A stretch of DNA of 64,000 nucleotides from an uncultured delta proteobacterium (GTDB lineage Bacteria > Desulfobacterota > RBG-13-43-22): contig CAWJJC010000010.1 in assembly GCA_963843145.1 (NCBI GenBank), forward strand, positions 192,001 to 256,000, read 5' to 3'. Positions within the stretch are counted from its first letter, which is position 1; every line of letters starts with the position of its first letter. Under the pieces are notes generated by a model. The model ran no database searches, was not told the DNA's origin, and worked only from the letters and a program-made list of their open reading frames with translations. Shown piece by piece: positions 8,679-30,359 of this stretch. The position numbers and the translations under genes are program-made.

Positions 8679-9233
8679 ATGTTTTTAATCACTATTCTGG
8701 TACTGATCGTTGTCCTGGGTTTCCTGGTGATCGGCCCCTACAACGCCCTGGTCCGGGGAAGGAACGAGGTCAAAAACGCCTGGAGTTCGATCGACGTCCA
8801 GCTCAAGCGGCGCTATGATCTGATTCCCAATTTAATAGAAACGGTTAAGGGATATGCGGGCCACGAAAAAAAGACCCTGGAGGCGGTGGTCCAGGCCCGG
8901 CAGCAGGCCGTTAACTTTAGCGGGGGAGTGGAGGAACGGGCCCAGGTCGAAAATGTCCTGACCTCGGCCCTGCGTTCGCTCCTGGCCGTAGCCGAGGCCT
9001 ACCCGGACCTCAAGGCCAATCAAAACTTTCTGGCCCTGCAGGAGGAACTTTCCAACACCGAGAACAAAATCGGCTTCTCGCGACAGTACTATAACGATGC
9101 CGCCATGCGCTACAGGAACCGGGTGGAGATGTTCCCCAGCAATATCGTTGCCAATATTTTTGGTTTTCAGGCCGAGCCATTTTTTCAAGTGGAAGCCACC
9201 GCGGAACGCGTGGCTCCTCAAGTGAAATTTTAG
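8679..9233 (+). CDS. lemA: LemA family protein
   Basis: N-terminal TM; YNALV..RNEVKNAWSSIDVQLKRRYDLIPNL.ETVKGYA.HE; EAYPDLKANQNFL.LQEEL..TENKI...RQYYN; FPSNIVA. Confidence 0.95.
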   Translation: MFLITILVLIVVLGFLVIGPYNALVRGRNEVKNAWSSIDVQLKRRYDLIPNLIETVKGYAGHEKKTLEAVVQARQQAVNFSGGVEERAQVENVLTSALRSLLAVAEAYPDLKANQNFLALQEELSNTENKIGFSRQYYNDAAMRYRNRVEMFPSNIVANIFGFQAEPFFQVEATAERVAPQVKF

Positions 9234-9250: not shown

Positions 9251-9520
9251 ATGGTTGAGACACTTCAGAATATCGGTTGGGCGGTGATTTTTTCAATAAT
9301 GGGCGGCCTGATCGGGATGGCGCTGGTCATCGCCTCATCGCTGATCCTGCCGTCGCTCATCGATCGCCTGACCCCCAACATTGACGAACAGAAGGAAATT
9401 GCCCGCGGCAATACCGCGGTGGGGGAATACTACGGGCGAGTCGTAGGCTCCGCCATCCTGGGGGTGAGCATCGTAGTTGCCGCCGCGGTATTGGGCGGGA
9501 TCCTCGCCGCCTTGCATTAA
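9251..9520 (+). CDS. Small two-TM membrane protein, DUF350-like
   Basis: Two hydrophobic helices flanking IDRLTPNIDEQKEIARGNTAVG, resembling the DUF350 signature. Confidence 0.7.
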   Translation: MVETLQNIGWAVIFSIMGGLIGMALVIASSLILPSLIDRLTPNIDEQKEIARGNTAVGEYYGRVVGSAILGVSIVVAAAVLGGILAALH

Positions 9521-9550: not shown

Positions 9551-12500
9551 ATGAAACGGCTTGTCGGACTGACGGCGTTGTTTCTCCATTTGCTCAGTCC
9601 CACCCTGTCCTGGGCCCGAGGCGGGGGCGGCTGCCTGGAAGAGGGCACCCCGATTCGGACCCCAAAGGGGTCGGTGGCCATTGAAAAGCTGGTGGTGGGC
9701 GACCCGGTCTGGAGTCTATCCGCCGGCCAACTGCGGGAGGCCAAAGTCCGGGCGGTTATCCGGGTGCTCCCCCAAGAGATCCTGGAGATATCCGCCAGGG
9801 AGACCCGGTTACGGGTCACCCCCGAACATCCGCTGCTGGTGGCCCCCGGAACGTATCGCCAGGCAGGTTCCCTTTTCCCGGGGGATACGGTTTTCCTTTT
9901 CAGGGCTGGAGCGCTGAAGGCCGAGACGGTCCGGTCCATTGAACACCGGATAGCGAAACGCCCGGCGTATAATCTCTTGGTCAGCCCGGGCGGGACCTTT
10001 CTTTCCGGGGACCTGGTCCTGCACAATAAGGGCTGCTTCCTGCCCGATAGCCCGATCCTGCGGACGGACGGGACGGAGGTGATGATCAGTGCCGTGAAAC
10101 CGGGCGATGCCCTTTGGGCCTTCACGCCGGGCGGACACCTGGTACCCACCCGCACCCGGTCCGTGATTCGCCTCGAAGCGGATGAGTATGTCCTGATGAA
10201 GACCGATCGGGTCACGCTGCGGGTAACCCCGGAGCATCCTTTCTACGTCGGCCGGGGAACCTTCAAGACAGTCGAAGCCCTCAAACCGGGGGATACCGTC
10301 CTGGCTTTTGACGGGAAATGGCTGGCCAAACAGCATATTGTTTCCCTGGAGAGGGTCCGGGAACGGGTTTCGGTCTATAATCTCCAAACCGATCGGCCTC
10401 ATACCTTTTTCGTCAGCGGGGTGGCTGTCCACAATAAGGGCGGAGGATGTTTCCCGGCCGGAACCGGGATTGCCACTCCCCAGGGAGAGCGGTTCATCGA
10501 AGAATTGGCTGCCGGAGACGAAGTCCTTGTCCGTAGACCCGGAAGGGCGGACGGTTCGGAGCCGGGTGAAAACCATCCTGGTGAATAAAAGCCCCCTGCT
10601 GAAAATTAAGACCGCCAGGGGTTTCCTGCTGGCCACCGAGGACCACCCGATACGCGTGGGGAAAGATAGGTTTCGGCCGGCGGGGGATCTCCGCCCGGGA
10701 GAGCAAATCACCCGCTGGAATGAGGGCCGCCTGGCCGCCGACACGGTTCGGAGGATAGACTCCGGGCTTAAGGAAGGACTCGTCTTTAATCTCGAAGTTA
10801 CCGGTCCCCATACCTTCATTGCCGGCGGCGTCGTCGTTCACAATAAGGGGGGTGGTTGCCTTCCGGCGGGAACTCCCATCCAAACCCCTAAGGGTCAAAC
10901 CGCGATTGAAGAGCTGGCCCCAGGAAGCCCGGTACTGTCCGTTGATCCCGAAGGCCGGGTTATCCCTACCCACGTTGAGAAGATTTATAAGACCCGGGCA
11001 CTGCTTATCGAAGTCGTCACGGATGCCGGGTCCTTGCGAACCACTTCCGACCACCCGGTGGGCAGTCCCGGCGGGGCGTTCGTTCCCGCCGGGCGGCTGC
11101 GGCCGGGCCGGGAAGTGCTCTTCTGGAAGGACGGGGTTCTCCGAACGACCCGCGTCAAGCGGATCGTTTGGGAAGAGCACCCGCAACCGGTCTACAACCT
11201 CAGCGTAGGCTGGCCGAACACGTTTCTGGCCTCGGGGTTTCTGGCCCACAACAAGGGAGGGGGAGGATCCAGAAGCTCAAGTTCCGGTTCTTCCCACGGG
11301 AGGAGCGGCGGCAGCACGCTCCACCTGGGAGGATCTGATCCTTTCTTTCTTTTTTATCGTCTTCATTTTTATTCTTGTTCGTGATCGTCTTTGTCGCGAT
11401 CGCTTCCAAAGCTTTCCAAGAAAAAGAGCGAAAATCTCGACTTCGTTTACAGCCGCAATCAGATCGATCCCAAGGCACAAAAGACCGAGAAACTGTTGGC
11501 CTTCCTCAGCCGTCAGGATTCCTCCGTCTCCCCGGAAACGCTGCGCGATCAGGCGAAGGCCACGTTCCTCAAACTGCAGGAATGCTGGGGTAAACGGGAA
11601 TACGGGCCCATGGGGGCGCTGCTGGTACCGGACCTCTATACCCAGCACACGGCCCAGCTCCAGGGCTTGGCCCGGAACCACGAGATCAATCGGATCGACG
11701 ATCTGACAGTGGAGCGGATCGATCTGGTGAATGTCCGCTATACCGAAAAGGGGAATCAACGGGAGTTCACCGCTCTGATTACCGCTTCGGCCCGGGATTA
11801 TTATCTGGACGACCGCTCGGGAAAATTCCTCCGGGGCGATCGGACCCCGGCGCGTTTTCAGGAGTTCTGGACCTTCCAGTTGATGAACGGACGTTGGCTG
11901 CTGCGGGAGATCGAGCAGGCGGGGGAAGCGGATATCCTCAAGGATGACAACTTCGCCGAGATGCTGACCGAAGAAACGCTGAAGGGGATTTACGGAGAAG
12001 CATCCGTCCCCACAGGGGAAGCGGGGCCCTGGCTGGAGAAAGAGGTGGAACAGAAGGCCGGTCGCACCGACCGCTTGTTGAATTTTCTATCCCAGACCGA
12101 CAAGCTCTGGAATCGAAACCAGATGCTCGAACGGGCTCGTCAGGTTTTCCTGGATGTCTACCTGGCCCGGGAAACAGGCGATCCGGCCCGGGTCGCGGCC
12201 GACGACCTCTTTCCGAAGGTGGCCGAGGATTTGAAGACCCAGGTGGCTTACTGGAAGAATGAGGGCGTCGTCGTCGAATACCGGAATCTTTGTGTGCGCA
12301 AGGTGGAGCTGCTCCTGGTTCGTAATTCGGGGACAACACCCGGGATGAATATACGGTGCGGGTCAGCGCGCATGCCCAGCGGATGATCCGCAAAGGTGAC
12401 CAGTCCTTGAGCGCCCAGGACTACGTCACGCCCTTTGAAGAGTACTGGACTTTCGGCCGCCTGGAGGGACAGTGGAAACTGAAGGAAGTATTGCCTCCGG

Positions 12501-12595
12501 GCCAGGGGAAAAAGGCTGTTGGCCTGGAAAACGTGGACGAAGACAGCAACCCCGGGCAGCTCCAATGGTATTACCGGCAGCCCCGCGTCCGTTAG
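9551..12595 (+). CDS. Exported poly-Hint protein: signal peptide + 4 tandem Hint/BIL domains + Gly/Ser linker + TM + two Tim44-like domains (frameshifts at ~10526, ~11315-11410, ~12330)
   Basis: Joined from ORFs 9530-10588, 10308-11384, 11391-12386 and 12356-12595. Four C...TxxHP...HN units; Tim44-like segments ending FQEFWTFQ...WLLREIEQ and FEEYWTFG...WKLKEV. Confidence 0.85.
9632..10027 (+). other. Hint domain 1 (132 aa)
   Basis: CLEEGTPIRTPKG...VTPEHPL...AYNLLV...VLHN, followed by KG. Confidence 0.9.
10034..10435 (+). other. Hint domain 2 (134 aa)
   Basis: CFLPDSPILRTDG...VTPEHPF...VYNLQT...HTFF...AVHN, followed by KGGG. Confidence 0.9.
10448..10844 (+). other. Hint domain 3 (132 aa after removing 1 extra base at ~10526)
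   Basis: CFPAGTGIATPQG...ATEDHPI...VFNLEV...HTFI...VVHN, followed by KGGG. Confidence 0.88.
10857..11252 (+). other. Hint domain 4 (132 aa)
   Basis: CLPAGTPIQTPKG...TTSDHPV...VYNLSV...NTFL...LAHN, followed by KGGGGS. Confidence 0.9.
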
Positions 12596-12988: not shown

Positions 12989-15900
12989 TTAATGCTCGAT
13001 CAAAGGCAAGTACAAATGCAACTTGCCATCAAAAGGGATATACTGAGGGGTCAGCACATCGAGGACGACTCCGCCCAGCAGTTGCGCGCCCGCGTAGCCC
13101 TCCACGGCAATCCGAGGTTTCCGGCCCTGGGAGATCGGAGATCCCGCCGCTATCTGCACGGTCACGGGGACCTGTTCACCCGGTACCAGGGTCGCCTGGG
13201 CGGGCGAGACCGTCACCATCCAGTCCGCGGGGAGGTCGATTCTACGATAACGCACATCGATAACGGCCGTCGCACTCCCCGGGTTGCTCACCGGGAAGGT
13301 TTCCGTGGTCTGATAGACCTGCACCATGGTGTTTCCACTCGCGGCCGCACCGATCGACGCCAACGCGGCGCCGGCCGAACCGGCGGTCACGGTCGGGACG
13401 AAGACCACGGGATGCAGGAACAGTTCGCTGACCTGCCGGAAGCTCGCCGAAAGATCCTGCAGCTTGGTGCGCGGGCTCTCGCCCAGGAGGGTGGGATCGG
13501 CCGCGATCAACTGCTGACGGCGGTTTTCAATCTGCGCGTCGCTGAACCCGGCGGCGTGGTAGTCATTGATATCGTCGGCGCTGAAGCCCGTCGTTTTCAA
13601 CTGGTCCTGGTAGGCGAGGACGGCGTCGAGCGGGATCGGGTTGTCGGGTACGGCCTCGCTGACCAGCAGGTTGGTGAAGGCGTCCACCTTGTCGGCGGCG
13701 GCCGCCAGGGAGGAAGCCAGGCGCAGTTTAAAGTACAGAAAGGCGTTCGCCTGGATGGAGGCCCACTGGAGGGAGTTGGCCTCCGACGCCCCGCCGTTGC
13801 GGTCGATTGAAACGGCGGCCCCGCCGCCGTCATAGACGAGATCCGCCAGGGCATTGGCCAGATCATTAAACGCCGCGGCCTCGGCCGGGGTTACCCCGGT
13901 CGTCGGGGTCGCGGTGATGATGGCCAGCCGGGCCGGGATTGTCACGGCCCGGTAATCCTGGCTGGGCGGGTCGCCGGTAAGAGAATTGGAAATATCCTGC
14001 GCCAGCGACAGCAGCATGTCGATCATGTGTCGGGCCAACCTGAGCGGGATTTTGAAGGGGGTCGTGTCAAAGGCTTTGTCGATAAAGGAGTTCATCTTCT
14101 CAAGGGAGTTCTTCGTCTTCTGCAGGCCCGATTTTTGCGGCGGGCTGACCAGTCCCGGTTGATAGATCTTGAGATTGCGCTGCCTCCGCCCCGAGGATCC
14201 CGCTAACAGCCGCGCGTTCAAGGCTCCCGAGCCGACTGAAGTGATACTGTACTGCACTTCGAAGCAATAGTGACCGGAAACCACCGGCGTCCACGGCAGG
14301 CTGAAGGTGCGCGTGCTGCCGGCCGGGATGACTTCGCCCGTAAAGGTCCCCAGGGGACCGAAGACCAGGCCGACCCCGGATTGGACAAAACCGAAGGTCA
14401 GGTCCACGGTGACGGGCTGGGGCAGCGGATTGGTCAGCGACGCACTGACCGTGGCCGGGACGCCCTGGATGGCCGGCAGCGGGGTCACGTCGATATCGTT
14501 GCCCAAATAGGGAGCCGGGGAATTGGGGAACAGTTCAGTCAGGTTGAGCGGGGTGGTGAAGGTGATTTTCGATTGGGGTGACATGGCGTATTCGCAGGCG
14601 CTGGCGGCATCCAACGTGGCCGTCACCAGGGCATCCCCGGTTCCGGCCGAGAGAAGGTAAGCCAGCGTTTTTCCGGTAATATCGGTTATGCCGCCATCGG
14701 TCACGGTCCCCAGATTCGATTTAAGCTTGACGGTGCGTCCGGGAAGGGGCGCGCCGTTGCCGTCGGTCAGGGTGAGGTCAAAATAGACCTTGGTCAGGTT
14801 ATCCGCCGGGGCAAACCAGCGCCGCGGCGTGAGGGTGATGACTGGAGCGTTGCTGAGGGGAAAGTCCACGTTGGCCACGGTGCTGGTGAGGAAGGGGACG
14901 AACAGCACCCCGGCCGTGACGTTATCGCCCGCGCCCGTCCCGCAGGCCGGCGCCAGGTCGGAATGGGGCCCGGTGGGGTCGCCCCACCAGTTGTTGGTGG
15001 CCAGGACGGCGGAGTTGGTGGTCGCGTTGCGCACACCGTACAGGGCGTTACCGGTAATCTGGCTTTCCAGGACCGATCCGCCGGCGTTGCTGTCGAAGCG
15101 CACCCCGTCCTTGGAGCTGTTGCGGATGATGCTGTGCCGGGCCACCAGCATCCCGTTCGAGAGATAGATATTGGCCCCCAGGCGTCGCTCCCCCCGTACT
15201 CGACCGTGGTGTACTCCAGTTGGGCCGTCGCCGGCTGCGTTCCGCCGAAAACCACCAGCCCGCGCCAGGAACCGGGACTTTGGGTCTGACCGGTCAACAG
15301 CACCGGCTCGGTGGCCGTCCCCATTACCTGGAGGCCCCCGCCGATCGCCAGAAACCCTGTGGCGGTGAACTTCAAGGTGCTGCCCGCTTCGATGGTCAAG
15401 GTATTGCCCAAGAGGTTGGCCACCCCCGAGTCTATCAGATAGGGAATGCCCGGATTGGCCCAGTGCCGTTGGCCGGTTACGGTGGTCACCGTGGACACCA
15501 GCACGGCATTGCTCCCATTACCGCCGGCAGTTAGGCTGCTCAGCTTAAGGTCCCCTGAGGGTGCGTTGAACTGGAGCGCATTTTGACCGTTGCCGGTAAA
15601 GCTGGAGGAGCGGATTTCGAAGCCGCTTCGGTAAGTGCCATAGACGCCGTTTCCGGCGCTGCTGTTGATCGCCGAGTGTAAAATGGTGAGCACGGCCCGG
15701 TCCGCGTAGACGGCCGCCCCGAAGGAACCGCTGATTCCGCCATACTCGATGGTCGCATACTCGAAGGTTGCGGAAGCGTTGGGCGCCCCATCCACGTTGA
15801 TCCCTCCCCATGAACCGGGGGATGCGGTCACGCCGGTAAAAGTAATCGGGTTGGCGGGTGACCCGATCGCCACCAGGTTGCCCTGAACATAGAGTGTGCC

Positions 15901-16140
15901 TGGAGCGGTGAATTGTACGGTCACACCCGGATCGATGGTTAGCGTGACCCCACCGGGGATCGTGGCCCCGCCCGCGCAGACATCGTAGGGACTACCGGCT
16001 GGAGTCCAGGTGGTGGTGACGAGCGATCCGCAGATGGCAGTCGGTGCTGCCTGGGCGGTTTGAATCATTTGGAGATGTTCGATCAAGAAGCATCCGATCA
16101 GGACCAGGATACCCAAGAAACAAGCCTTTAATCCAGTCAT
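12989..16140 (-). CDS. Large exported beta-helix/Ig-like surface protein with C-terminal LYLPLI tail (frameshift ~15175)
   Basis: Signal peptide; repeated G...P..FT/LT.....PGSW.G beta-helix units; NNWWGDPTGP; Big_1-like DGNGAPLPG..V; ends LHLYLPLIEH. Joins ORFs 14794-16152 and 12989-15151. Confidence 0.75.
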
Positions 16141-16794
16141 AAAATGAACCACCTCAACTTCGCCTGAAATAAAGAGTGCGATCCTCTTATGTAGGTTGAG
16201 CTATTCACCAGGGGAATTCTCCCGGGCAGCATTATTAGCCCGGAGGTCTCCATTCCTATCCTCTACGCTTGTCCGGTATAATTTTATGCATTGAATAAAA
16301 AAGGATAAATAGGGTAAATACTGCATTTTTAAGATGGAAACACAGTATTTTATGAAACAGGTTAGCCCCTAGTAATCCGGGAGGTAGCCTCCGGATAAAC
16401 TGGAACAGAGCCGACAGATGCGCTTTCGAGGAATATATGCGCGGACTGGCGCGGCCGGATGCTGCCGGGGCCCTCTTTTAGGTCATGGGCCGGAAGATTG
16501 AGGCTGGTTAGGATATTTAGAAGGAAATTAGGCCGGGGAGAACTTCCTCGCGGATAATGGAAAGCCAAAGGCAAAGGGCCGAAAGAGACCGCAAGTCGTT
16601 TAGCGCCGGAAAGATTATCCGTCCCCTACACCAGCCGGGACCATTCATCCGGTCGGCCTGACGAAATGGAATGTATTTCTTCTAAATTCCATGCAGAGGG
16701 GTCCCGGCCTCAACCTGCCCCGGCGCCTCATCACGGATCAGCTTCTCACTTTTCTCCTCCGCGGCCCGGCCCACACGCATTGGTCCTTTCGTTA

Positions 16795-17502
16795 CTATCG
16801 ATTGGCTACACCCAACCATTTTTCCAGTAGGCCGGGGTCGTCGGACAACGCGGCGCTGGAGCCAAAATGAACGATCCGTCCCCGCTCCAGTATTATCGCT
16901 TTATCGGTCAGTGGGAGTATTTGGCGGGCATGCTGCTCGACCAGGACTACCGCCATGCCGCCGGCTTGCATCATGGTTTGGACCGCGGCCAGCACCTCCT
17001 GGACGACAATGGGCGCCAGCCCTTCCAGCGGTTCGTCGAGCAACAGGAGCAGAGGATTAAGGACCAAGGCCCGGCCGATGGCTAACATTTGCTGTTCGCC
17101 CCCTGAAAGTTGATTGCCGAAATTGCGCCGTGCCGCCTGCAGACGCGGGAATAGTTTGAACACGTCTCCCGGCGTCCAGGGACCCGGACGGGCCACCGCC
17201 GTCAGGTTTTCCTCGACGGTCAGCGAAGGAAAGATATCCCGTTCCTGGGGAACCCAGCCTAAGCCGGCCGCGGCCCGCTTGTGGCTCGGGACAAAAGTAA
17301 TTTCCCGACCGCCAAACCAGATCTGTCCGCCATGGACCTGGGTGGCGCCCATGAGGGTCGCCACCAGGGTGGTCTTGCCCATGCCGTTGCGGCCGAGAAC
17401 GGCCACCGCCTCGCCCTCGGCCAGGGTCAACGACAGGGCCGAAAGCACCACGGACTGACCATACCCGGCGGAAAGGTCCTGGAGGCGTAACAGGTCACCC
17501 AT
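16795..17502 (-). CDS. livF: Branched-chain amino acid-type ABC transporter ATPase (LivF-like)
   Basis: GRNGMGKTT; LSGGEQQMLAIGRAL; LLLDEP. Confidence 0.9.
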   Translation of the reverse strand: MGDLLRLQDLSAGYGQSVVLSALSLTLAEGEAVAVLGRNGMGKTTLVATLMGATQVHGGQIWFGGREITFVPSHKRAAAGLGWVPQERDIFPSLTVEENLTAVARPGPWTPGDVFKLFPRLQAARRNFGNQLSGGEQQMLAIGRALVLNPLLLLLDEPLEGLAPIVVQEVLAAVQTMMQAGGMAVVLVEQHARQILPLTDKAIILERGRIVHFGSSAALSDDPGLLEKWLGVANR

Positions 17503-18247
17503 AGGCCGCCTCCCCTAAATAGACCTTGCGCACCCGGGCGTCGGAGGCAATCACCTCGGGCGGGCCCTCGACGAGGACCGCCCCGGCGACCAGCACGGTA
17601 ATCCGGCGGGCAAAGCGGAAGACCAGATCCATGTCGTGCTCGATCAGCAACACCGCGACGGTGCTGGGCAGTTCGGCCAGGGTGCTATAAAGTTCAACCC
17701 CCTCCCCTTCGGGGATGCCGGCAGCCGGCTCGTCGAGCAGAAGCACGCGCGGGTGAAGGGCCAGGGCCAGGGCAATCTCGATCATTCGCTGCCGTCCGTA
17801 AGGCAAAGTCTTAGTGGGCCGGTGGGCACAATCGAGCAGGTGCAGACGATCCAAAAGCTCGGCGGCTTCGTCGATCGTTTCCGTATCCCCGGCCAGGCGA
17901 GACCACCAGCGGGCCGTGGTGCCACGCCGTTGGGCCACGGCTAAGGCGACACTTTCCAGGGGTGTCAGGCCCGGAAAAAGTTGATTGACCTGGAAAGTGC
18001 GTACGAGCCCGTGGGAGACCCGCTGATGTTGGGCTACTTCAGTGATGTCGACGCCGTTTAGGATCACCTTTCCGGCGTCCGGCCGGAGAACGCCGGTCAA
18101 TAGGTTGACCAGAGTGGTCTTGCCGGCACCGTTGGGACCGATCAGCGCCTGGCGAGCGCCCTGTTCGACTGTCAGGGAAATGTCATGGGCGACCATCAAA
18201 CCGCCGAATTGCTTTCTGAGACCCTTGGTTTCCAAAGCCGACTGCAT
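17495..18247 (-). CDS. livG: ABC transporter ATPase (LivG-like)
   Basis: GPNGAGKTT; LVRTFQ; LLLDEPAAG; IEHDMD; VYLG C-terminus. Confidence 0.9.
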   Translation of the reverse strand: MQSALETKGLRKQFGGLMVAHDISLTVEQGARQALIGPNGAGKTTLVNLLTGVLRPDAGKVILNGVDITEVAQHQRVSHGLVRTFQVNQLFPGLTPLESVALAVAQRRGTTARWWSRLAGDTETIDEAAELLDRLHLLDCAHRPTKTLPYGRQRMIEIALALALHPRVLLLDEPAAGIPEGEGVELYSTLAELPSTVAVLLIEHDMDLVFRFARRITVLVAGAVLVEGPPEVIASDARVRKVYLGEAAYG

Positions 18248-18249
18248 CT

Positions 18250-19305
18250 TCAATCTCCCGGGTGCCCGGCTTCGCCCGGCCCAGGCCGATGCAGAAAGGA
18301 CAGGCCCCTTGAGGCCAGTCCCATGAGTCCACCCCGGGCCAGGAAGACGAGGGCGATGAAGGCAATTCCGATCCAAAACTGCCAGTATTCGGGGCTGATG
18401 TCGGAGAGCCAATACTGGGCGACGATCAGCGCCAGGCTTCCCACCAGGCCGCCGTAAAGCGTACCGGCTCCCCCGAGCACAACGACCAACAGTACCTCGG
18501 CCGATTTCCCGAAGGAGAGCACGTCGAGGGAGACGAATTGCGTGGTCTGTGTCAGGAGGGCCCCGGCGATGCCGGCCAGGGCGGCCCCCAGGGTATACAC
18601 GACCACCAGACGCCGGACCACGGGGGTGCCCAGGGCATGCATGCGTCGTTCATTTTCCTTGATGCCGCGCAAGGCCAGGCCGAAAGGAGAATGGACGAAG
18701 CGCCGGACCAGAAGAAACGAAAGGAAGAGAACGATCAGGCTGTAGAGGTACGCCGTGCGACCGTACAGACCGAAACCCCAGATCCCCAAGATGGGCCGGA
18801 CCGTTACCCCCTGAAGTCCATCGGCGCCGCCGGTGAGCCCATGCAGCTTATTGGCCAACTCCAGCAACATGAGGCAGATACCGAGGGTCACCATAAGCCG
18901 GGTGAGATCCGAGCCGCGCAGGACCAGGAAGCTGGTGGCAAAACCGACAAGGGCGGCCGCCAGACCCCCGATCACCAGCCCGCTGAGGGGTTCGCCCCAG
19001 CCCTGCTGGGCCAAGATCCCGGCCGCGTAGCCTCCCAGTCCGAAAAAGGCCGCGTGTCCCAGCGAAATGATGCCGGCATAACCGAGAATAAGGTCGAGGG
19101 AGAGGGCAAAGAGGCCCATAATGGCCACACGACTCAGCAGGACCAGTTGCCGCGGAAAGAGGAAGTAAGCGGCTATCGTCAGAACCCAGAAGACGATCTC
19201 CAGGGGTCGCCAGGAAGCCGCGGCCTGAAGAGGCGCGGCTGCGGTCCGATACCGAATTCGGCGGCTCTGCGCCAGGGGCGACTCCCTGGGGTCTGAACCG
19301 GTCAA
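18250..19305 (-). CDS. livM: ABC transporter permease (LivM-like)
   Basis: GYAGIISLGHAAFFGLGGY; TGGADGL; SPFGLALRGIKENE. Confidence 0.9.
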   Translation of the reverse strand: MTGSDPRESPLAQSRRIRYRTAAAPLQAAASWRPLEIVFWVLTIAAYFLFPRQLVLLSRVAIMGLFALSLDLILGYAGIISLGHAAFFGLGGYAAGILAQQGWGEPLSGLVIGGLAAALVGFATSFLVLRGSDLTRLMVTLGICLMLLELANKLHGLTGGADGLQGVTVRPILGIWGFGLYGRTAYLYSLIVLFLSFLLVRRFVHSPFGLALRGIKENERRMHALGTPVVRRLVVVYTLGAALAGIAGALLTQTTQFVSLDVLSFGKSAEVLLVVVLGGAGTLYGGLVGSLALIVAQYWLSDISPEYWQFWIGIAFIALVFLARGGLMGLASRGLSFLHRPGPGEAGHPGD

Positions 19306-20165
19306 GACGTGGCTCTTCTGCCGAAGAGGCCCTGGGGCCGCCAGATGAGCATAACGACCATGACGGCATAGATGATAAAGGCCCCGATTTCGGGGATGTA
19401 GTACTTACCGGCCACATCGAAGACGCCCAGGATGAGCGCCGCAGCCAACGGGCCGCCTACGGTACCGGTCCCGCCCACGGCGACGACGATCAAAAAATAG
19501 ACCAGGAACTTTACCGGAAAAGTCGGGTCCAGGTTGAGGATTTCGATCCCCAGGGCTCCGGCCAATCCGGCCAGTCCCGATCCTAAGCCGAAGGTGATAG
19601 CGAAGAGACGATTGACATTGATGCCCAGGCCCCGGGCGACACGTCCATTATCGACGGCGGCACGCAGCCGGCTGCCGAAGCGGGTCCGCATCAGGCCCAG
19701 GTGGAGGAACAGGGCGATGAGGCCGCAAAGCCCGATCAGGAAGAGGCGGTAGACTCCGACGTCGAAGCCGGAGAAGACGTGAAACTGCCCTTGCAGGAAT
19801 GAGGGAACTTGAATGATCTGATGTTGAGAGCCCATGAAATAGGCGGCGGCGGCCATGGAGGCAAAGACGATCCCAATGGTGAACAGCACCTGATCCAAGG
19901 GATGGGCATTGTACAGGCGAACGTAGAGGGTGCGCTCCAGGATCACCCCGGCCAAGGCCGAAACGATGAAGGCTACGGGCAGACAAAAGAGGAAAGGCAG
20001 GCCCCAGTGGTTCAACAGCACCACGGCCACATAACCGCCTAACATGGCGAACGAACCGTGGGCCAGATTGACGAAGTTCATGATGCCGAGGGTCACGCTT
20101 AACCCGAGGGCCAGCAGGAATAGCAAAGCCCCCGAGGAAACGCCATCAAAGAGGACGGTCAACAT
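19302..20165 (-). CDS. livH: ABC transporter permease (LivH-like)
   Basis: ALGLSVTLGIMNFVNLAHGSF; TRFGSRLRAAVDN; RPQGLFG. Confidence 0.9.
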   Translation of the reverse strand: MLTVLFDGVSSGALLFLLALGLSVTLGIMNFVNLAHGSFAMLGGYVAVVLLNHWGLPFLFCLPVAFIVSALAGVILERTLYVRLYNAHPLDQVLFTIGIVFASMAAAAYFMGSQHQIIQVPSFLQGQFHVFSGFDVGVYRLFLIGLCGLIALFLHLGLMRTRFGSRLRAAVDNGRVARGLGINVNRLFAITFGLGSGLAGLAGALGIEILNLDPTFPVKFLVYFLIVVAVGGTGTVGGPLAAALILGVFDVAGKYYIPEIGAFIIYAVMVVMLIWRPQGLFGRRATS

Positions 20166-20195
20166 GGGATCGTCTGCTGTTTTGCCGATCGACGA

Positions 20196-21365
20196 TTACT
20201 TCCCGCTTGGGGGTACCGAGGCGATATGGTCGAACTCGACATTGAACAAATGACCGCCTACTCGCTTCACCTCGCGCATATAGACATCTTGGACGATATC
20301 GCGGGTCCGCGGATCGATGCTGACCGGGCCGCGGGGGCTGACCCAGCTTAAGCCCTTGGCCGCGGCGATGAATTTGTCGCCTTCGGCCGAGCCATTGGTC
20401 TTCTTCAGGACCCGGTAAATCAAATCCATGCCATCCCAGCCACCGACGGCCATGAAGTTCGGCCGCATACCGGGGTTGGCTTTCTCGAAGGCGGCCACGT
20501 AGGCCTTGTTCTCGGGTGAAGGATGGGCCGCGGAATAGTACTGCGAGGTAATCGTCCCGATAGCCGGATCCCCCATGGAGTCCAGGATGTCGTCATCCGT
20601 CATGTCGCCCGTGCCGATGAGCTTGATGCCGGCCTTGGACAGACCACGCTCGGCGAACTGCTTCATCACCGCGGCACCCTGGCCGGAGGGAACGAAGACA
20701 AACAGGGCCTGGGGTTTGGCATCTTTGGCCCGTTGGACAAAGGGCGCATAGTCGGGATTCTGAAGGGGAACCCGGGCGCTGCCGACCACTTTCCCTCCGT
20801 TTTGTTCGAACACCCGCTTAAAGCTGGTCTCCGCGTCAATGCCCGGCGCGTAGTCGCTTATCAGCGTGAACACCGTCTTAATACCGTGCTGGGAAGCCCA
20901 AACCGCCAGCGGAGTGGAATTTTGGGGCAGCGTACCCGAAGTGCGTAAGATATAGGGAGACTTCTCCGGGATAACCAGGGTCATGGCCGACATAACGATC
21001 ATGGGGGTCTTGGCGAGCGTGGCGATCGGGGCCGCCGCGAAGGCCAGCGGTGTCAGCCCAAATCCGGCCAGGATTTCGGCGTGATCATTGGTGACCAGTT
21101 CCTGGGCGAAACGTTTGGTGGTCTCCGGCACGCTGGTATCATCCCGCAGTAAGAGCTCGATCTTGCGGCCGGCCACCACATTGCCGTGCTCGGCCAGATA
21201 AAGCTTGACGGCCGCAACGACCTGCTTGCCGGTCGAGGCAAAAGGTCCGGTCATCGGGAGAATCAGACCGATCTTTAGGGGTTGTTGGGCCATGGCCCTT
21301 TCAGATAAAAAAACGGACGCGGACAGAAAAACCAAAAATAAAGTGAAGAACAATCTTATTCTCAT
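20196..21365 (-). CDS. Periplasmic substrate-binding protein (Leu/aromatic acid-binding PBP1 family)
   Basis: Signal peptide; KIGLILPMTGPFASTG; GFGLTPLA; SDYAPG.DAE; SPRGP..IDP.TRDIVQ. Confidence 0.9.
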   Translation of the reverse strand: MRIRLFFTLFLVFLSASVFLSERAMAQQPLKIGLILPMTGPFASTGKQVVAAVKLYLAEHGNVVAGRKIELLLRDDTSVPETTKRFAQELVTNDHAEILAGFGLTPLAFAAAPIATLAKTPMIVMSAMTLVIPEKSPYILRTSGTLPQNSTPLAVWASQHGIKTVFTLISDYAPGIDAETSFKRVFEQNGGKVVGSARVPLQNPDYAPFVQRAKDAKPQALFVFVPSGQGAAVMKQFAERGLSKAGIKLIGTGDMTDDDILDSMGDPAIGTITSQYYSAAHPSPENKAYVAAFEKANPGMRPNFMAVGGWDGMDLIYRVLKKTNGSAEGDKFIAAAKGLSWVSPRGPVSIDPRTRDIVQDVYMREVKRVGGHLFNVEFDHIASVPPSGK

Positions 21366-21842: not shown

Positions 21843-23556
21843 TTATTTCACCGGGGAGGCATCCCACTCCCCTTCCCGTCGCAATTGTTCCACGATGGGC
21901 TGGGCCAGCTTCTGCAGGGCCAGCTTGTCCACTTTGGTGCTGCGGGTGATTGGGAATTCCCGGCCGGCGGGCCAGAGCTCCACATGCTGGGGCCGCTTGT
22001 AGGAGGCGATTTCCCGGCAGTGGGCCAGCACTTCCTCGGCGGTCAGCGCCGCCCCCGGGAGGAGGCGCACAAAGGCAAAGATCCCCTCGTCAAAAAGCCG
22101 ATGTTCCAGACCCACCACTTCGGCCACTTCCACCCCGGGCAGCCGGCCGATGTGGGCTTCGACCTCATCCGGAAAAACGTTATAACCTTTTTGTTTGATC
22201 ACGAACTTCCGCCTCCCGGCCAGAAAGAGGGCCCGGTAGGTTCCCAGGTTTTTGAAGGAGCCGAGGTCCCCGGTATAGAGGATCCCTTCTCTGGAAATGG
22301 TTTTGGCCGTTTCCTGAGGCTGGTTGTAGTAGCCGAGGAACACCAGGGGTGGATGGTAGCAGATCTCCCCGATCTCCCCTTCAGGGAGTTCCTCCCCGGC
22401 GCTGCCGTCCGGGTTCATGGGCCTGCGGACCGTAACGGCCGCCAGGTCGGGGAAGGCCCGCCCCACCTGGCCGACCATTTCCTCCGGCGGAATATCCTTC
22501 GGGGTAAAGGTGGCGAAGCCGGCATTTTCGGTCATGCCGATACCGGTGCCGAAATGGGGAGCCATGCCGGAGAGTTTTTTCAGGAAGGCCAGATCCACCG
22601 CCGAACCGGCATAGGCCACGAAGCGCAGGCTGCTCAGATCGAGACCGGGATAGTCGGGATGATTCCAGAGCATCCGGTACTGGGTGGGGATCTGCCCGAG
22701 GACATTGACCCGGTGCTTGGGAATGGCCTCCAGGGTCATCTTGACATCAAAGATGCGCAACAGGACGGTCGTGCCCCCCAGGGCCATGGTGGTCATGAAA
22801 CATTCGGTCAGACAGCCCACGTGGCTGGGAGGCAGGTTGATCAGGATACGCAGGTCGCTGCCCAGTCCCACGTCCAATCCCCGGGCCAGGATCTCGTTCT
22901 GGGTGATGATGTTCTCGTGGCAGAGCAGGGCCGGTTTGGGATCGCCGGTTGTCCCGGTGGTATAGATGATCAAGGCCGGGGTCCGGGGTTTGACCTGTCG
23001 ATAAGCCTTTTCCAGCCTCCGGGTGAAGAGGTCCTTGATTTTCAAAGCCAGGAGCTTCTTCTTGTCCATCATCCCGGTGATCGACCAGGCCCCGTCCAGG
23101 AGTTCCCCGGGCTTCGGGTCGGCCGTAAACTGCACCAGAAATTCGACGGAAGGGACAGTGCGCTTTTACCGCTTGGCCGACCTGGCGGAAATCTCGGACC
23201 GGGGTCTGTCCCAGGAAGAAAAAGACCTTGGGGTTGATTTTGTTCAGGTCCCGGACGACTTCTTCATCCTTGAGGCGCAGGTCCAGCGGGGAAACAATGG
23301 CTCCGATCTTAAAACAGGCGTACATCAGCATCAGGTGTTCCGGAATCAAAACCAGTTGGGTGGCCACGCGGTCTCCCTCCCGGACACCCATATCCAGCAG
23401 ACGCAGGGCGAAGAAGTCGATCAGGGAAAGAAACCGTTTATAGGATACGGTTTTGCCGTCCTCGTGCTGGATCATGGCCGGTTTATCCGGAAAGGTTTTC
23501 GCCCAGTGCTCGATATAGGAATTGACCAAGGGTAATCTAACAAAAGGGGTGGTCAT
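21843..23556 (-). CDS. AMP-binding acyl-CoA synthetase (frameshift ~23150)
   Basis: IYTTGTTGDPKPA; GMTE; YTGDLG; GRRKFVIKQKGYNVFPDEVE; joins ORFs 22747-23556 and 21843-23135. Confidence 0.85.
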
Positions 23557-24949: not shown

Positions 24950-25738
24950 TCAGGATCGGCCTTCCTCGGCCAGGCAGGCGGCGCCAAGGGCGGCGGTGAG
25001 CCGAGGGGTCTCCGGAACCCGCACCTCCAAACCCAGGGCCTCGCTGACGACCCGGACCAGGCCGGTGTCTTCGGCCCCGCCGCCAGTGAGAACCACCTCC
25101 GGCTCCATTTTCACCCTTTTGGCCAGCAGGGCCACTTTGGCGGCCATGGCGCGATGCACGCCGGCCAGCAGGTCTTCCGGACGGGCGCCTTCAGCCAATC
25201 GCGAGACGGTCTCCGATTCGGCAAAGACGGCGCAGTTGGTGGAAAATTCCACCGGCCTTTCCGATTTCAGGGAAAGTGGGCCGATGGCTTCCCATTCGAT
25301 CTGCAGGATACGGGCTATGATCTTCAGGAAGCGGCCGGAGCCGGCGGCGCATTTTTCGCTGATCAGGAAATCGACCACCCGGCCCTCGTTGTTCAGCTTG
25401 GCGGCTTTGGTGAACTGCCCGCCGATATCGATCACGGTGCGGGCCGCTGGGAAGTGGAAACGGCAGCCCCTGGCCTGGCAGGATATGTCGGACACCGTCC
25501 GGGCCGAAAAGGGGGCGCTTTCCGCTCCGACACCGGTGACCACAATGCCGGCGAGTTGTTCCCGGTTCAGCCCGGCCCGGGCCAAGGCCGCCTCCAACAC
25601 GCCTCGGGCCGTTTCCCGGTAGCGCCCCCCGGAAGGACACATTTCGGAAGCCAGGATTTTTTGACCGCTGAGCAGCACCGCCTTGATAAAGGCCGAACCG
25701 ATATCCACTCCGGCAAAACAGGCGGGCGCTTTGCTCAT
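24950..25738 (-). CDS. CoA-substrate enzyme activase (BadF/BadG/BcrA/BcrD/HgdC ATPase family)
   Basis: GVDIGS; IDIGGQ; EKCAAGSGRFL; NCAVFAESE; TGGGA. Confidence 0.9.
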   Translation of the reverse strand: MSKAPACFAGVDIGSAFIKAVLLSGQKILASEMCPSGGRYRETARGVLEAALARAGLNREQLAGIVVTGVGAESAPFSARTVSDISCQARGCRFHFPAARTVIDIGGQFTKAAKLNNEGRVVDFLISEKCAAGSGRFLKIIARILQIEWEAIGPLSLKSERPVEFSTNCAVFAESETVSRLAEGARPEDLLAGVHRAMAAKVALLAKRVKMEPEVVLTGGGAEDTGLVRVVSEALGLEVRVPETPRLTAALGAACLAEEGRS

Positions 25739-26565
25739 TGGAAGAAGGTCACCCCTTCCAGTTTTCTGGCCCGGTTCGGGATCACCCCGCGGGCGGTGAA
25801 GTCCATTCCCAAGAGGGCCGCCCCCAACGCACCGGTGAGGAGGGGTTCATCGGGCACCAGCACCGGGAAACCGACCTGGTCTCCCACGGCCTGGATCAAC
25901 CCGCTGTTCATGGCCCCGCCGCCGGTGACTGCCACGTCCTTTTGGATCCCCAGAGCGCGGACCAGATTGACCACCCGCCCGGCAATGGCCGCGTGCAACC
26001 CGGCGATGATTTCCGGGATACCCGCCCCCTCGGCCAGCCGGGAAGTCACCTCGTGTTCGGCAAAGACGGTGCAGGTATTGGAAATAGGGACGGCTTCCTT
26101 GGCCATCAGCGAAAGGCCGCCCATTTCGGCCAGGGGGATCCCCAGGGTATCGGCGATCACCTCCAGGAAACGGCCGGTACCGGCGGCGCACTTATCGTTC
26201 ATGACAAAGTTGATGACCTTGCCGCCGGCGTCCAGCTTGATACCCTTGGAGTCCTGCCCGCCGATATCGATAACCGTCCGGACCGTGGGAAAGAGGGCCC
26301 GAATGCCCCGGGCGTGGCAGGTGATCTCCGTAATCTGCTTGTCGGCGAAGGGGACGTTGATCCGTCCGTACCCGGTGGCCACGATAAAGTCCAGGCCCTC
26401 CAGGGCCAGGCCCGTTTTGTCCAGGATCCCGGCCAGCACTTGCAGGGCTAAATGGCGGTGTTCGGCGCCGGTAGGGCCGATGATTGATCCCAGAACTTTT
26501 CCTTCCCCGTCGGTGATAACCGCCTTGGTCATGGTGGAGCCGATGTCAATGCCGGCATAGGGCAT
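25735..26565 (-). CDS. CoA-substrate enzyme activase (BadF/BadG/BcrA/BcrD/HgdC ATPase family)
   Basis: GIDIGSTMTK; ATGYGR; TEITCHA; IDIGGQDSK; MNDKCAAGTGRFLE; TCTVFAE. Confidence 0.92.
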   Translation of the reverse strand: MPYAGIDIGSTMTKAVITDGEGKVLGSIIGPTGAEHRHLALQVLAGILDKTGLALEGLDFIVATGYGRINVPFADKQITEITCHARGIRALFPTVRTVIDIGGQDSKGIKLDAGGKVINFVMNDKCAAGTGRFLEVIADTLGIPLAEMGGLSLMAKEAVPISNTCTVFAEHEVTSRLAEGAGIPEIIAGLHAAIAGRVVNLVRALGIQKDVAVTGGGAMNSGLIQAVGDQVGFPVLVPDEPLLTGALGAALLGMDFTARGVIPNRARKLEGVTFFQ

Positions 26566-26613
26566 AATTATCTTTTGTATACCGTCTCTTTATTGTATTT
26601 ACCGGTAATCTCT

Positions 26614-26698
26614 CGTCATCCCCGAATGCCTTTATCGGGGATCCATTGTTCCTTGAGAAAGGCCTGGATTCCCGCTCAGAAGCGCTGCGGAAATGACG
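26614..26698. repeat. CGTC REP-like doublet, copy 2
   Basis: Reverse complement of 12708-12792. Confidence 0.8.
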
Positions 26699-26853
26699 CG
26701 CATTAATTCCGAGTAGTTTTTGTTTTGGTCATTTGGATTTGGGACTTTCGTGCTTGTTTCGAATTTCGTGCTTCGGATTTCGGATTTAAAGATCGCGCCG
26801 GTTCAATACTATTATCGTACCTGGACCCTTTGCCCCTTTCTCCAACCTTCCAT

Positions 26854-28167
26854 TTACGCCCGCCCCGCCAGGGCCTCGATAAAGGCCCCGATCTGGGCCT
26901 TCCAGTGGGCCTCGGAGTAATCCCGGAGATCGACCATGTCGGAGACCAACTGCATCATGGGGATATCCGTGAATTGACCCAGGAGGTTTTTGATATGCAC
27001 CTGGCCGACCGTGGTCGCCCGGCAGGAACGGCAGGCGTGGAAGACCACCCCGTCGATCCGGTAATCGTTGATCATCCCCAGCAGCTTTTCCACGATGGGA
27101 TGGCCGCTGTGGGCCCGGGCCTGGTCGTGACGCTGCGTGAAGCGCAGAAAGGTCCGCCAGGCCAGGTATTCGACCGGGTCTTTGATCCGGGCCGGCACTT
27201 CCACGGGGTCGTAGCCCCGGTAAACGTTCTCAATTACGAATACGGCGCCGAAGCTTTCGAAGTAATTAAAGATCCAGAGGGTGTGCCAGGGGGGCAAGCC
27301 ACCGCCGTAGAGCAGGCGGTACTTTTCCTCGGGGATGACGCCGATCTTGTTTTCCGCCTTGGCCTTGACCTCATCGTAGAGCCCCTGGTAGAAATCCACC
27401 GCCACCTGGGTGCCGGAGAAATAATGGCCGGCCACCATGACGCTGAAGTGGTCCTGGGTCGGCATGGGGCTGGGGACGGCGACGCGCAGTCGGTCGATCT
27501 CGTACCAGAGCCGCCAGGACTCATCCCCCAGCCGGATGGTCTCCCAGAGCCTCTCTGGATCAAGCTTCTGGCCGGTCTGCTGCTCGAGAAACCCGATCAG
27601 ACCCTGAAACTGCTCTTTTTGATAGTGGATATAGTAGTCCCGCACCCGGTCCAGGTCCGCGTAAACCGGCGGCCCAACCACATCGATATTATAGGTAGGC
27701 ACGTCCAGGTAGCGCCCCGCCGCCTGAAACCATTTGAAGCGGGGGTCGCAGACGGCGCTGCTGCCCAGCATCAGGTCTGGGACGGGCATCCCGCCGTCCG
27801 GGGCGTTTTCCGGCAGGCCGCCCAGCTCTTTTCGCAGGCTGTCGAAGCCCAGGCCGATCCGGGCATAGCTGCAAAGCACCTGGGAGTAGCCGTCCGCTTC
27901 CGCCTGGAGGAGAAAGCGGTCCATGTCGCGCTTGGCGGCGCACAAGCCGGCATAGTTTTCCGTGGGCAGAGGCACGATATCCATGGCCCGCAGGATTTCG
28001 TCATACTGGGAAGCCACCATAAAATAGGCCACTTTCTGGCCCCGGGCCTTGGCTTCGTGGGCGTTCCGGTAGATGCTCTTCACCAGGGCCCGCACCTGCC
28101 GGGCCGTTTCCGTGCCTTTGATCGCCGTGGTTTTTTGCTTTCCCTTCTCTTCCCTAACCATAACCAT
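26854..28167 (-). CDS. 2-hydroxyacyl-CoA dehydratase / class I benzoyl-CoA reductase family subunit (HGD-D)
   Basis: PTENYAGLC; LCSYAR; GGMPVPD; CDPRFKWF; IDGVVFHACRSCR; SDMVD.R. Confidence 0.88.
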   Translation of the reverse strand: MVMVREEKGKQKTTAIKGTETARQVRALVKSIYRNAHEAKARGQKVAYFMVASQYDEILRAMDIVPLPTENYAGLCAAKRDMDRFLLQAEADGYSQVLCSYARIGLGFDSLRKELGGLPENAPDGGMPVPDLMLGSSAVCDPRFKWFQAAGRYLDVPTYNIDVVGPPVYADLDRVRDYYIHYQKEQFQGLIGFLEQQTGQKLDPERLWETIRLGDESWRLWYEIDRLRVAVPSPMPTQDHFSVMVAGHYFSGTQVAVDFYQGLYDEVKAKAENKIGVIPEEKYRLLYGGGLPPWHTLWIFNYFESFGAVFVIENVYRGYDPVEVPARIKDPVEYLAWRTFLRFTQRHDQARAHSGHPIVEKLLGMINDYRIDGVVFHACRSCRATTVGQVHIKNLLGQFTDIPMMQLVSDMVDLRDYSEAHWKAQIGAFIEALAGRA

Positions 28168-28172
28168 TCCCT

Positions 28173-30310: not shown

Positions 30311-30359
30311 ATTTATTATGTTGTTCCTATTTTGAGATCATTTATGATCCCTACGGTTT

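Follow-up and report, generated by a model that had tools for sequence, protein, structure and literature searches.

Tandem BIL-like Hint domains with invariant Gly-1 and Lys+1 junctions in the exported part of a bacterial Tim44-like membrane protein

Introduction

What becomes of the N-terminal thioester of a Hint domain when the residue behind the domain is Lys, and not Cys, Ser or Thr? This question is raised by a locus in a 64,000-nucleotide stretch of DNA from an uncultured delta proteobacterium of the Desulfobacterota (contig CAWJJC010000010.1, positions 192,001 to 256,000; hereafter the window), in which four Hint domains stand in tandem between short pieces made of Lys and Gly. An earlier note, written from the letters of the window, had read positions 9617-11270 as RGGGG/Hint/KG/Hint/KGGG/Hint/KGGG/Hint/KGGGGS and had suggested that activated Gly might be passed on to Lys. 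Junction residues are what defines inteins and BIL domains, and a family with Lys at +1 and Gly at -1 that spans phyla is a natural experiment on Hints which lack a hydroxyl or thiol acceptor. In this work, we have found that the junctions are nearly invariant across the family and that the domains most resemble A-type BIL domains; capture of the Gly thioester by a Lys amine is our favoured, though tentative, explanation.

Architecture and fold of the Hint array

The reading of the array is exact to the base, since the Arg codon starts at 9617 and the Ser codon ends at 11270, and each of the four Hints in the window is indeed preceded by Gly and followed by Lys (flanks RGGGG, KG, KGGG and KGGG). 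What that reading had passed over is a frame break inside the third Hint. In the same way, the description of the exteins as tiny holds for the N-terminal and internal pieces only, as the last C-extein spans ~450 residues and is itself a membrane protein that carries two Tim44-like domains. Overall, the region codes for the exported N-terminal portion of a single conserved protein of the inner membrane. This protein consists of a Sec signal peptide, RGGGG, four A-type-BIL-like Hints joined by Lys-Gly(n), a Gly/Ser linker, one transmembrane helix and two Tim44-like domains.

On the forward strand, the gene opens with a signal peptide of 22 residues (MKRLVGLTALFLHLLSPTLSWA, 9551..9616, read from the sequence), for which a signal-peptidase I site is predicted before Arg, and the raw sequence continues with the N-extein RGGGG (9617..9631). 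Hint1 (132 residues, 9632..10027) shows Cys1, a T-x-E-H block B and the C-terminal His-Asn, and is recognised by Pfam Hint families, by an AlphaFold2 model of the first two Hints and by HINT fold matches. The linker Lys-Gly (10028..10033) leads to Hint2 (134 residues, 10034..10435), which is supported by Pfam, model and fold alike and to which the best PDB match, 2LWY, aligns. Behind the linker Lys-Gly-Gly-Gly (10436..10447), Hint3 (10448..10844) is interrupted by one extra base near 10525-10529, and can be read only by changing there from frame 2 (CFPAGT...AAGDEVL) to frame 0 (SVDPEGR...VVVHN). A second Lys-Gly-Gly-Gly (10845..10856) then joins it to Hint4 (132 residues, 10857..11252), which is evident from the open reading frame (ORF) listing and Pfam. 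According to the ORF listing and the raw sequence, the Hints of the window have 132-134 residues each, with Cys first, His-Asn last and T-x-x-H in block B of all four, and the Pfam families above cut-off in the array are Hint_2, PT-HINT, Hint, Intein_splicing and Vint.

In intact homologues, the last Hint is followed by a Gly/Ser/Arg-rich linker, a single hydrophobic helix, a Lys-rich stretch and two Tim44-like domains. The same parts are present in the window, but they are spread over three frames. Lys-Gly4 and a Gly/Ser/Arg-rich low-complexity linker, similar to that after the last Hint in homologues, occupy 11253..11340 by frame reading; the transmembrane helix region (11341..11420) is out of frame and was located by a three-frame reading against the intact homologues P0096 and P0123. 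The cytoplasmic part with the two Tim44-like domains (11391..12595) is matched by PF04280 in two stretches (E 3e-21; 76.5 bits vs a cut-off of 29.6), with a frame break near 12327 and its C-terminal 79 residues in the ORF 12356-12595. Given a signal peptide in front and Lys-rich sequence behind the transmembrane helix, the Hints are predicted to lie outside and the Tim44-like domains inside.

To examine the fold, we have modelled the construct RGGGG-Hint1-KG-Hint2-KGGG with AlphaFold2 on an alignment of 79 sequences, and the model is all-beta, with a mean pLDDT of 90.0 and a pTM of 0.86. Foldseek returned 47 PDB matches at E <= 0.001 for it, and the top ones listed are inteins, BIL domains and Hedgehog, in the order Tetrahymena BIL2 (6Y75/6TMM, E 2e-8), the Ssp DnaB mini-intein, the Clostridium thermocellum BIL 2LWY, Npu DnaB, RecA mini-inteins and Hedgehog 1AT0. 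At the sequence level, a profile search against the PDB placed 2LWY first (5.8e-16), then BIL2 (2e-14), the best intein (3e-10) and Hedgehog (3e-7). With the HINT beta-fold of the model, the N-terminal Cys and the block B T-x-x-H, the domains are, as judged from model and motifs, members of the HINT (Hedgehog/intein) superfamily. In addition, they end in His-Asn, lack Cys, Ser or Thr at +1 and are nearer to BIL domains than to inteins in sequence, so that by motifs and sequence they match A-type BIL domains, and they are predicted to process themselves. Amitai 2003 is said to have defined the A-type by just this C-terminal His-Asn plus the absence of a +1 Cys, Ser or Thr. PMC7664689 describes BIL domains without a +1 nucleophile, which 'produce predominantly cleaved products', and cites Amitai 2003 and Aranko 2013 for the A-type, e.g. 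the C. thermocellum BIL (PDB 2LWY).

Compared with the known systems one by one, the domains resemble 2LWY in fold (Foldseek TM 0.84 on the target), in Cys1, a D/E-H-P-F-Y-V block B and the C-terminal VHN, and in having none of Cys, Ser and Thr at +1; like it, they are placed in an exported, non-conserved stretch and not in an enzyme active site. On the other hand, they have the invariant Lys+1 and Gly-1 (a comparison made without the native flanks of 2LWY), their tandem arrays count from 1 to at least 5 units, the linkers measure 2 to 8 residues, and the host is a Tim44-like inner-membrane protein.

BIL2 of Tetrahymena thermophila BUBL1 (6TMM, 6Y75), which matches in both sequence and fold, is of special interest for its chemistry. 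According to section 2.4 of PMC8616854, the piece upstream of it, which has Gly at its end, is converted to a thioester and then, with no ATP, linked through its C-terminus to a Lys epsilon-amine by an isopeptide bond; BIL2 is described there as an ATP-independent 'single-ubiquitin-dispensing platform' that moves ubl4 onto ubl5 or Ras. Its flanks, however, are folded ubiquitin-like (Ubl) domains and its acceptor Lys lies inside ubl5 or another protein, whereas the Lys here stands at +1 of a bacterial, periplasmic domain. We have rejected a Ubl-BIL-Ubl polyprotein of the BUBL type, since the linkers have 2 to 8 residues and no Ubl Pfam match was obtained.

The C-terminal autoprocessing domain of Hedgehog (1AT0) is likewise secreted and of HINT fold, its thioester is resolved by an outside nucleophile, and the G|CF junction resembles the Hedgehog GCF site. 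Unlike the present units, which reach HN at ~132 residues and have no sterol-recognition region, it has such a region and lacks the C-terminal His-Asn cleavage. A Hedgehog/Hog assignment was dismissed, as the units of the homologues end in HN after 128-140 residues and K-Gn follows immediately. Class 1 mini-inteins (Ssp and Npu DnaB, Mtu RecA) share the fold and the catalytic blocks A, B and G, but here there is no +1 Cys, Ser or Thr and no conserved housekeeping insertion site, and the domains are tandem and extracytoplasmic. A canonical class 1 intein is excluded by Lys+1 in the four window units and in 221/221 homologous units, and a class 1 insertion in a conserved host site by the flanks, which are oligo-Gly low-complexity sequence in an exported tail. 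Finally, Pretoxin HINT (PF07591) scores 58.9 bits vs a cut-off of 27.7 and also occurs in an exported context; the accepted role of this domain in polymorphic toxins is cleavage without splicing. This assignment was discarded too, since the only downstream Pfam domain is Tim44, with a transmembrane helix and two Tim44-like domains and no match to a toxin family.

Conservation of the junctions

Relatives were collected by a scan of one genome per species, in which 203 genomes matched; the locus counts below refer to the best 80 loci, one per species genome, from about eight phyla. Two patterns were used to fetch the loci, and one of them, HNKGCFLP, biases the Hint1/Hint2 junction only, not the later ones. 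From these 80 loci of other genomes we have derived the junction statistics, based on 221 complete Hint units with their flanks.

In these units, Cys1 and the C-terminal His-Asn are present in 221/221 and T-x-x-H in 217/221. The flanks are just as constant, with Lys+1 and Gly+2 in 221/221 each and Gly-1 in 220/221. The Lys+1 codon is AAG in 136 units and AAA in 85, and this use of both codons indicates conservation at the protein level. The N-extein is RGGGG in 76/78 first Hints, and its Arg is invariant in alignment A2. The residue preceding this Arg in 78 homologues is Ala in 55, Gly in 19, Ser in 3 and Pro in 1, i.e., Ala, Gly or Ser in 77/78, as expected for a signal-peptidase site, and the signal peptide would accordingly be cleaved just before the invariant Arg.

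An unbiased profile search over 1.84 billion representatives gave 36,564 proteins at E <= 0.001, of which 247 reach 1e-30 or less. Among 60 Tim44-bearing representatives, Lys follows 151/151 Hint ends; one exception to Lys+1, from the first search, is P0068, with Asp-Gly after Hint1. The suggestion that the +1 Lys is under selection is borne out by these counts, which indicate strong selection on Gly-1 as well throughout the family, and variation of the +1 residue among homologues, which the earlier note had named as the result that would overturn it, was looked for and is not what the family displays.

Actually, the Lys extends beyond this family. Among 65 other representatives (fragments and other architectures), it is found at 97/142 VHN ends, and the remaining ends include Ser in 12, Arg in 6, Cys in 6, Ala in 5 and Thr in 5. 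Related Hints with Lys+1 may have a residue other than Gly next, with linkers K, KC, KP, KT or none. Since Lys is common before non-Gly residues and the linkers vary from G1 to G7, Lys+1 appears tied to the C-terminal chemistry of the Hint; on this sequence pattern, it is a part of the Hint's own C-terminal motif (VHN-K) and not of a defined K-Gn peptide. The thought that a defined K-Gn peptide product lies behind the Lys conservation has therefore to be given up. As a weak lead, Glu stands before the block-B His in 166/218 K+1 units vs 10/36 others, a difference confounded by kinship, and this Glu could mark a Lys-binding or Lys-activating site.

The linkers themselves bear on the idea of a cyclic peptide factory, in which a freed Lys alpha-amine attacks the downstream Gly thioester head-to-tail and yields the diketopiperazine cyclo(Lys-Gly), a larger cyclo(K-Gn) or cyclo(RGGGG). 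The linker between Hint1 and Hint2 is exactly KG in 72/72 single-frame loci (partly biased by the search pattern) and also at 38 junctions of the unbiased representative set, which speaks for this idea, and dipeptide thioesters cyclise readily. However, all later linkers are Lys plus 1 to 7 Gly, single-Hint members such as P0096 exist, the Hints of related arrays are separated by 0 to 1 residue, and Pfam searches on the flanking ORFs of five loci found no linked export or receptor gene. We thus hold a cyclic product to be extremely unlikely.

Beside this family, seven metagenomic proteins (P0291, P0258, P0287, P0327, P0343, P0347 and P0355) consist of 3 to 7 Hints in a row, separated by 0 to 2 residues (none, K, KC, R, KP), with Pfam recognising nothing else in them, and in some of them the Cys1 of the next Hint is the +1 residue of the preceding one. 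Tandem Hint arrays thus seem to be a wider, undescribed phenomenon.

Possible chemistry at the junctions

From the architecture, fold, catalytic motifs and junctions observed above, together with analogy to known systems, we infer that the domains are active, and above all that an amine may capture the thioester. That the array is self-excising in the manner of A-type BIL domains is very probable. In such a process, Cys1 would convert the Gly(-1)-Cys1 peptide bond to a thioester and the C-terminal His-Asn would cut the Asn|Lys bond through succinimide formation, each Hint being a single-turnover autoprocessing unit. Use of the N-terminal thioester, and not of C-terminal cleavage only, is suggested by the catalytic residues kept at both ends of every unit and by the conservation of RGGGG. 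The canonical transesterification step is impossible, because the +1 residue is Lys instead of Cys, Ser or Thr, and Lys cannot make an ester or thioester branched intermediate.

The explanation we favour, to which we would give somewhat less than an even chance, is that the Gly thioester is resolved by a Lys amine in cis. Two amines of Lys+1 could take part: the alpha-amine, once Asn cyclisation has set it free, or, as in Tetrahymena BIL2, the epsilon-amine. The excised Hints would enter the periplasm, the Gly-rich pieces would be joined up, leaving the membrane protein with a short tail of Lys and Gly, and hydrolysis would be a competing side reaction. Aminolysis by the freed alpha-amine was reportedly proposed for BIL domains by Dassa 2004. 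The Gly-thioester and Lys chemistry envisaged in the earlier note is thus not without precedent, given the BIL domains (PMC7664689) and the Lys isopeptide of BIL2 (PMC8616854), and these are the best sequence and fold matches of the array.

Several points weigh against capture by Lys. Without a shift in pKa, a Lys amine is a weak nucleophile at neutral pH, and a Lys nucleophile does not account for the invariant Arg with which the N-extein begins. Ligation would yield a low-complexity tail that has no obvious need to be joined again, and the linker length ranges from G1 to G7. As Lys+1 in related arrays is also followed by residues other than Gly, its role could instead be in C-terminal cleavage or in packing. 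The window copy has at least four frame breaks, and should they be genuine, this organism has only a dead gene. The evidence consists of sequence and analogy throughout, and BIL domains give mainly cleaved products (PMC7664689).

The last point leads to cleavage only, which would mean that thioester hydrolysis and Asn cyclisation release the Hints to the periplasm and trim the Tim44-like protein to a short tail, with R/K-Gly(n) as by-products, and that Lys+1 and Gly-1 are retained for fast, clean cutting or for packing on the fold. This is possible but doubtful, and nearly as likely as capture by a Lys amine. Besides the mainly cleaving behaviour of BIL domains (PMC7664689), it fits Lys after VHN in 97/142 related Hints with unrelated next residues, the variable number of Gly and linkers without recognisable function. 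Against it, Lys+1, Gly+2 and RGGGG are kept through about eight phyla more strictly than cleavage kinetics would usually demand, and related Hints tolerate Ser, Arg, Cys, Ala and Thr at +1. Moreover, both catalytic ends are kept, and the export of 2 to 4 domains per molecule just for discard needs a further reason.

A more specific form of Lys capture would make Lys+1 itself the second nucleophile, so that these would form a new mechanistic class, 'isopeptide-splicing' Hints. The Gly(-1) thioester would go to the Lys epsilon-amine before Asn cyclisation releases the Hint, and the tail would be stitched via Gly-epsilon-Lys bonds with free alpha-amines; alternatively, activated R/K-oligoGly would be donated to envelope amines. 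We consider this rather unlikely; if true, it would be an ATP-independent, ubiquitin-like Gly-to-Lys ligation outside the cytoplasm.

Related to such donation is a third-party acyl transfer, likened to Hedgehog cholesterolysis and to the Ubl transfer of BUBL, by which the array would be an ATP-independent extracytoplasmic store of activated acyl groups. From it, R/K-Gly(n) acyl groups or the upstream piece would pass to outside amines, for instance those of lipid head groups, peptidoglycan, protein lysines or polyamines. Such a transfer best explains why each piece has a basic start (Lys behind every Hint and, next to the signal-peptide site, the invariant Arg that is otherwise odd) and a Gly end, accounts for the tandem copies as single-turnover shots and fits a compartment free of ATP. 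In addition, BIL2 moves ubl4 to other substrates (PMC8616854), and DUF350 genes, whose family is the constant partner of this locus, are found elsewhere in polyamine and membrane-stress operons (PMC11237479). However, the link from DUF350 to polyamines is faint and comes from other operons, and we have found no acceptor, recognition domain or conserved neighbour besides DUF350 (and LemA in 46/80 loci). On balance, third-party transfer is unlikely.

If a Lys amine does capture the thioester, the array would be a bacterial extracytoplasmic counterpart of ubiquitin-like ligation without E1 and E2, which has up to now been reported for a single ciliate protein, and possibly a compact tool for protein ligation at Gly-Lys junctions. 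With cleavage only, it would be less remarkable, but still a puzzling case of a cell that exports several self-destructing domains per protein. Compared with what is known, the sequences point to Hint autoprocessing of the BIL type in which the invariant junction and the host are new and the units are laid out in tandem. The locus also ties three little-studied envelope families (DUF350, LemA and bacterial Tim44-like proteins) to testable chemistry.

Frame breaks in the window copy

The window gene is broken at no fewer than four places in 3.1 kb: besides the break in Hint3, at least three further ones beyond KGGGGS obscure the rest of the protein. If these breaks were real, it would be a decaying pseudogene with no product in this genome, and their number does exceed that in most neighbouring genes. 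We have compared the gene with short-read contigs from related soil metagenomes, which are other samples, 95-99% alike, and all seven of which are small-share contigs. A look for expression gave no RNA run among those listed for the stretch. The contig of run X4 has one base fewer at 10525, and those of runs X1 and X4 have one additional base at 12327/12328, each restoring the frame. Since these contigs lack two of the breaks and restore the long frame, the frame breaks of the window are very probably consensus errors and not decay. No read contig covers 11090-11407, and for the breaks in the transmembrane region the sequence itself suggests a cause, as they are probably three single-base slips in T and A runs.

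The context agrees with this. An AMP-binding gene of the acyl-CoA ligase type at 21843-23556 (reverse strand) of the same window is also split into two overlapping ORFs, with the profile parts 2-100 and 153-384 in different frames, which fits an error-prone consensus. Among the 80 related loci, 7/8 of those with frame changes bear the 'MFD' series label in their record titles, and same-genus relatives have open frames of 819 and 1040 residues. Overall, with the contigs of strains 95-99% identical, the split AMP-binding gene, the shared label, the open frames of the relatives and the position of the suspected slips all against it, decay to a pseudogene is quite unlikely.

Frame changes are also seen in seven database homologues (P0018, P0026, P0032, P0036, P0061, P0064 and P0049) and at locus L042, which go out of frame within the Gly/Ser-rich linker, some later being back in frame; strings of the RRWWKQEQLQ type in homologues are GGGGSRSSSS read out of frame. 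These shifts are likely sequencing slips in G-rich low-complexity DNA, the alternative being real slippage. Elsewhere in the window (12989-16152, reverse strand), two big ORFs, one of 720 residues with a Big_1 domain and one of 452 residues with a beta-helix, overlap by ~350 bases and may be one secreted protein split by another frame break.

Distribution and gene neighbourhood

The best 80 loci come from Syntrophales and other 'delta' lineages, Verrucomicrobiota, Planctomycetota, Nitrospirota, Lentisphaerae, Anaerolineales, Acidobacteria, Auribacterota and Legionella massiliensis. The Tim44-like part lies downstream of the Hints in 77/80 loci, and as the other three stop at a contig edge, this amounts to 77/77 of those that extend far enough; Hints and Tim44 share a single frame in 72/80. 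By a regular-expression count in these 72 single-frame loci, a few on truncated contigs, there are 2 Hints in 20, 3 in 45 and 4 in 7. Members with a single Hint (P0096) and with five also exist, so that the copy number runs from 1 to at least 5. The order of Hint1-type and Hint2-type units is kept, with 44-82% identity across phyla. The gene is patchy, being present in 11/21 genomes of the window's class and in 17/401 sampled from its phylum.

Such a pattern raises the question whether the Hints are selfish or neutral intein-like inserts without host function, duplicated in tandem in a tolerant Gly-rich tail. Both the copy number and the patchiness would agree with this, and no homing endonuclease is present; mini-inteins are known to persist without one. 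On the other hand, the preserved order and identity of Hint1-type and Hint2-type units across phyla argue against it. A useless insert could also be dropped by an in-frame deletion, yet in the phylum sample all Tim44 matches of the subfamily lie in long open frames, of at least 645 residues in 14/16 other genomes (judged by frame length only, without inspection for Hints). Selfish inserts are therefore very unlikely.

An open frame of the size expected for a complete Hint-free protein was found in the class and phylum samples only in the split copy of the window and in the split G004; G241 gave a partial match of 259 residues, which was left uninspected. Among the 120 listed of 305 Tim44 matches, no relative with a spliced-looking tail (R-Gn-K-Gn) was found, and the Hint-free ones with a clear N-terminus of their own (e.g., P0159, P0162, P0185 and P0235) begin at transmembrane helices, without a Gly tail. 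In the window's own genome, one query found no second copy of the Hint-Tim44 gene outside the locus. A literature search for Hint-Tim44 proteins, Lys+1 Hints or tandem Hint arrays found no paper, with subscription journals largely outside its coverage.

The constant partner of the family is a gene for a DUF350 (YjfL-type) small membrane protein, which lies directly upstream in 79/80 loci; in the window it occupies 9251..9520 on the forward strand (PF03994, 27.8 bits vs a cut-off of 26). A LemA homologue is found upstream in 46/80 loci, and in the window at 8679..9233 on the same strand (PF04011, E 1.4e-60). Pfam searches on the flanking ORFs of five loci revealed only unrelated genes and no further conserved neighbour. 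Legionella massiliensis (L075), the sole genome of a cultured isolate among the best 80 loci, has an intact three-Hint copy with DUF350 upstream, and its neighbours are unrelated housekeeping genes (cation efflux, QueH and HemY).

Further away in the window, a DUF2207 membrane protein with N- and C-terminal Pfam domains is encoded at 30338-32302 on the reverse strand. The DUF2207 family is often paired with LemA and has Gly-rich tails, and this gene may be a second LemA-type envelope module. At 24950-29312, on the reverse strand as well, there are two BcrAD/BadFG-type ATPases and two HGD-D subunits (2-hydroxyacyl-CoA dehydratase or benzoyl-CoA reductase-like), with a MaoC dehydratase and a branched-chain amino-acid ABC transporter in the adjoining region (16795-21365). 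This cluster, together with its neighbours, suggests anaerobic acyl-CoA metabolism.

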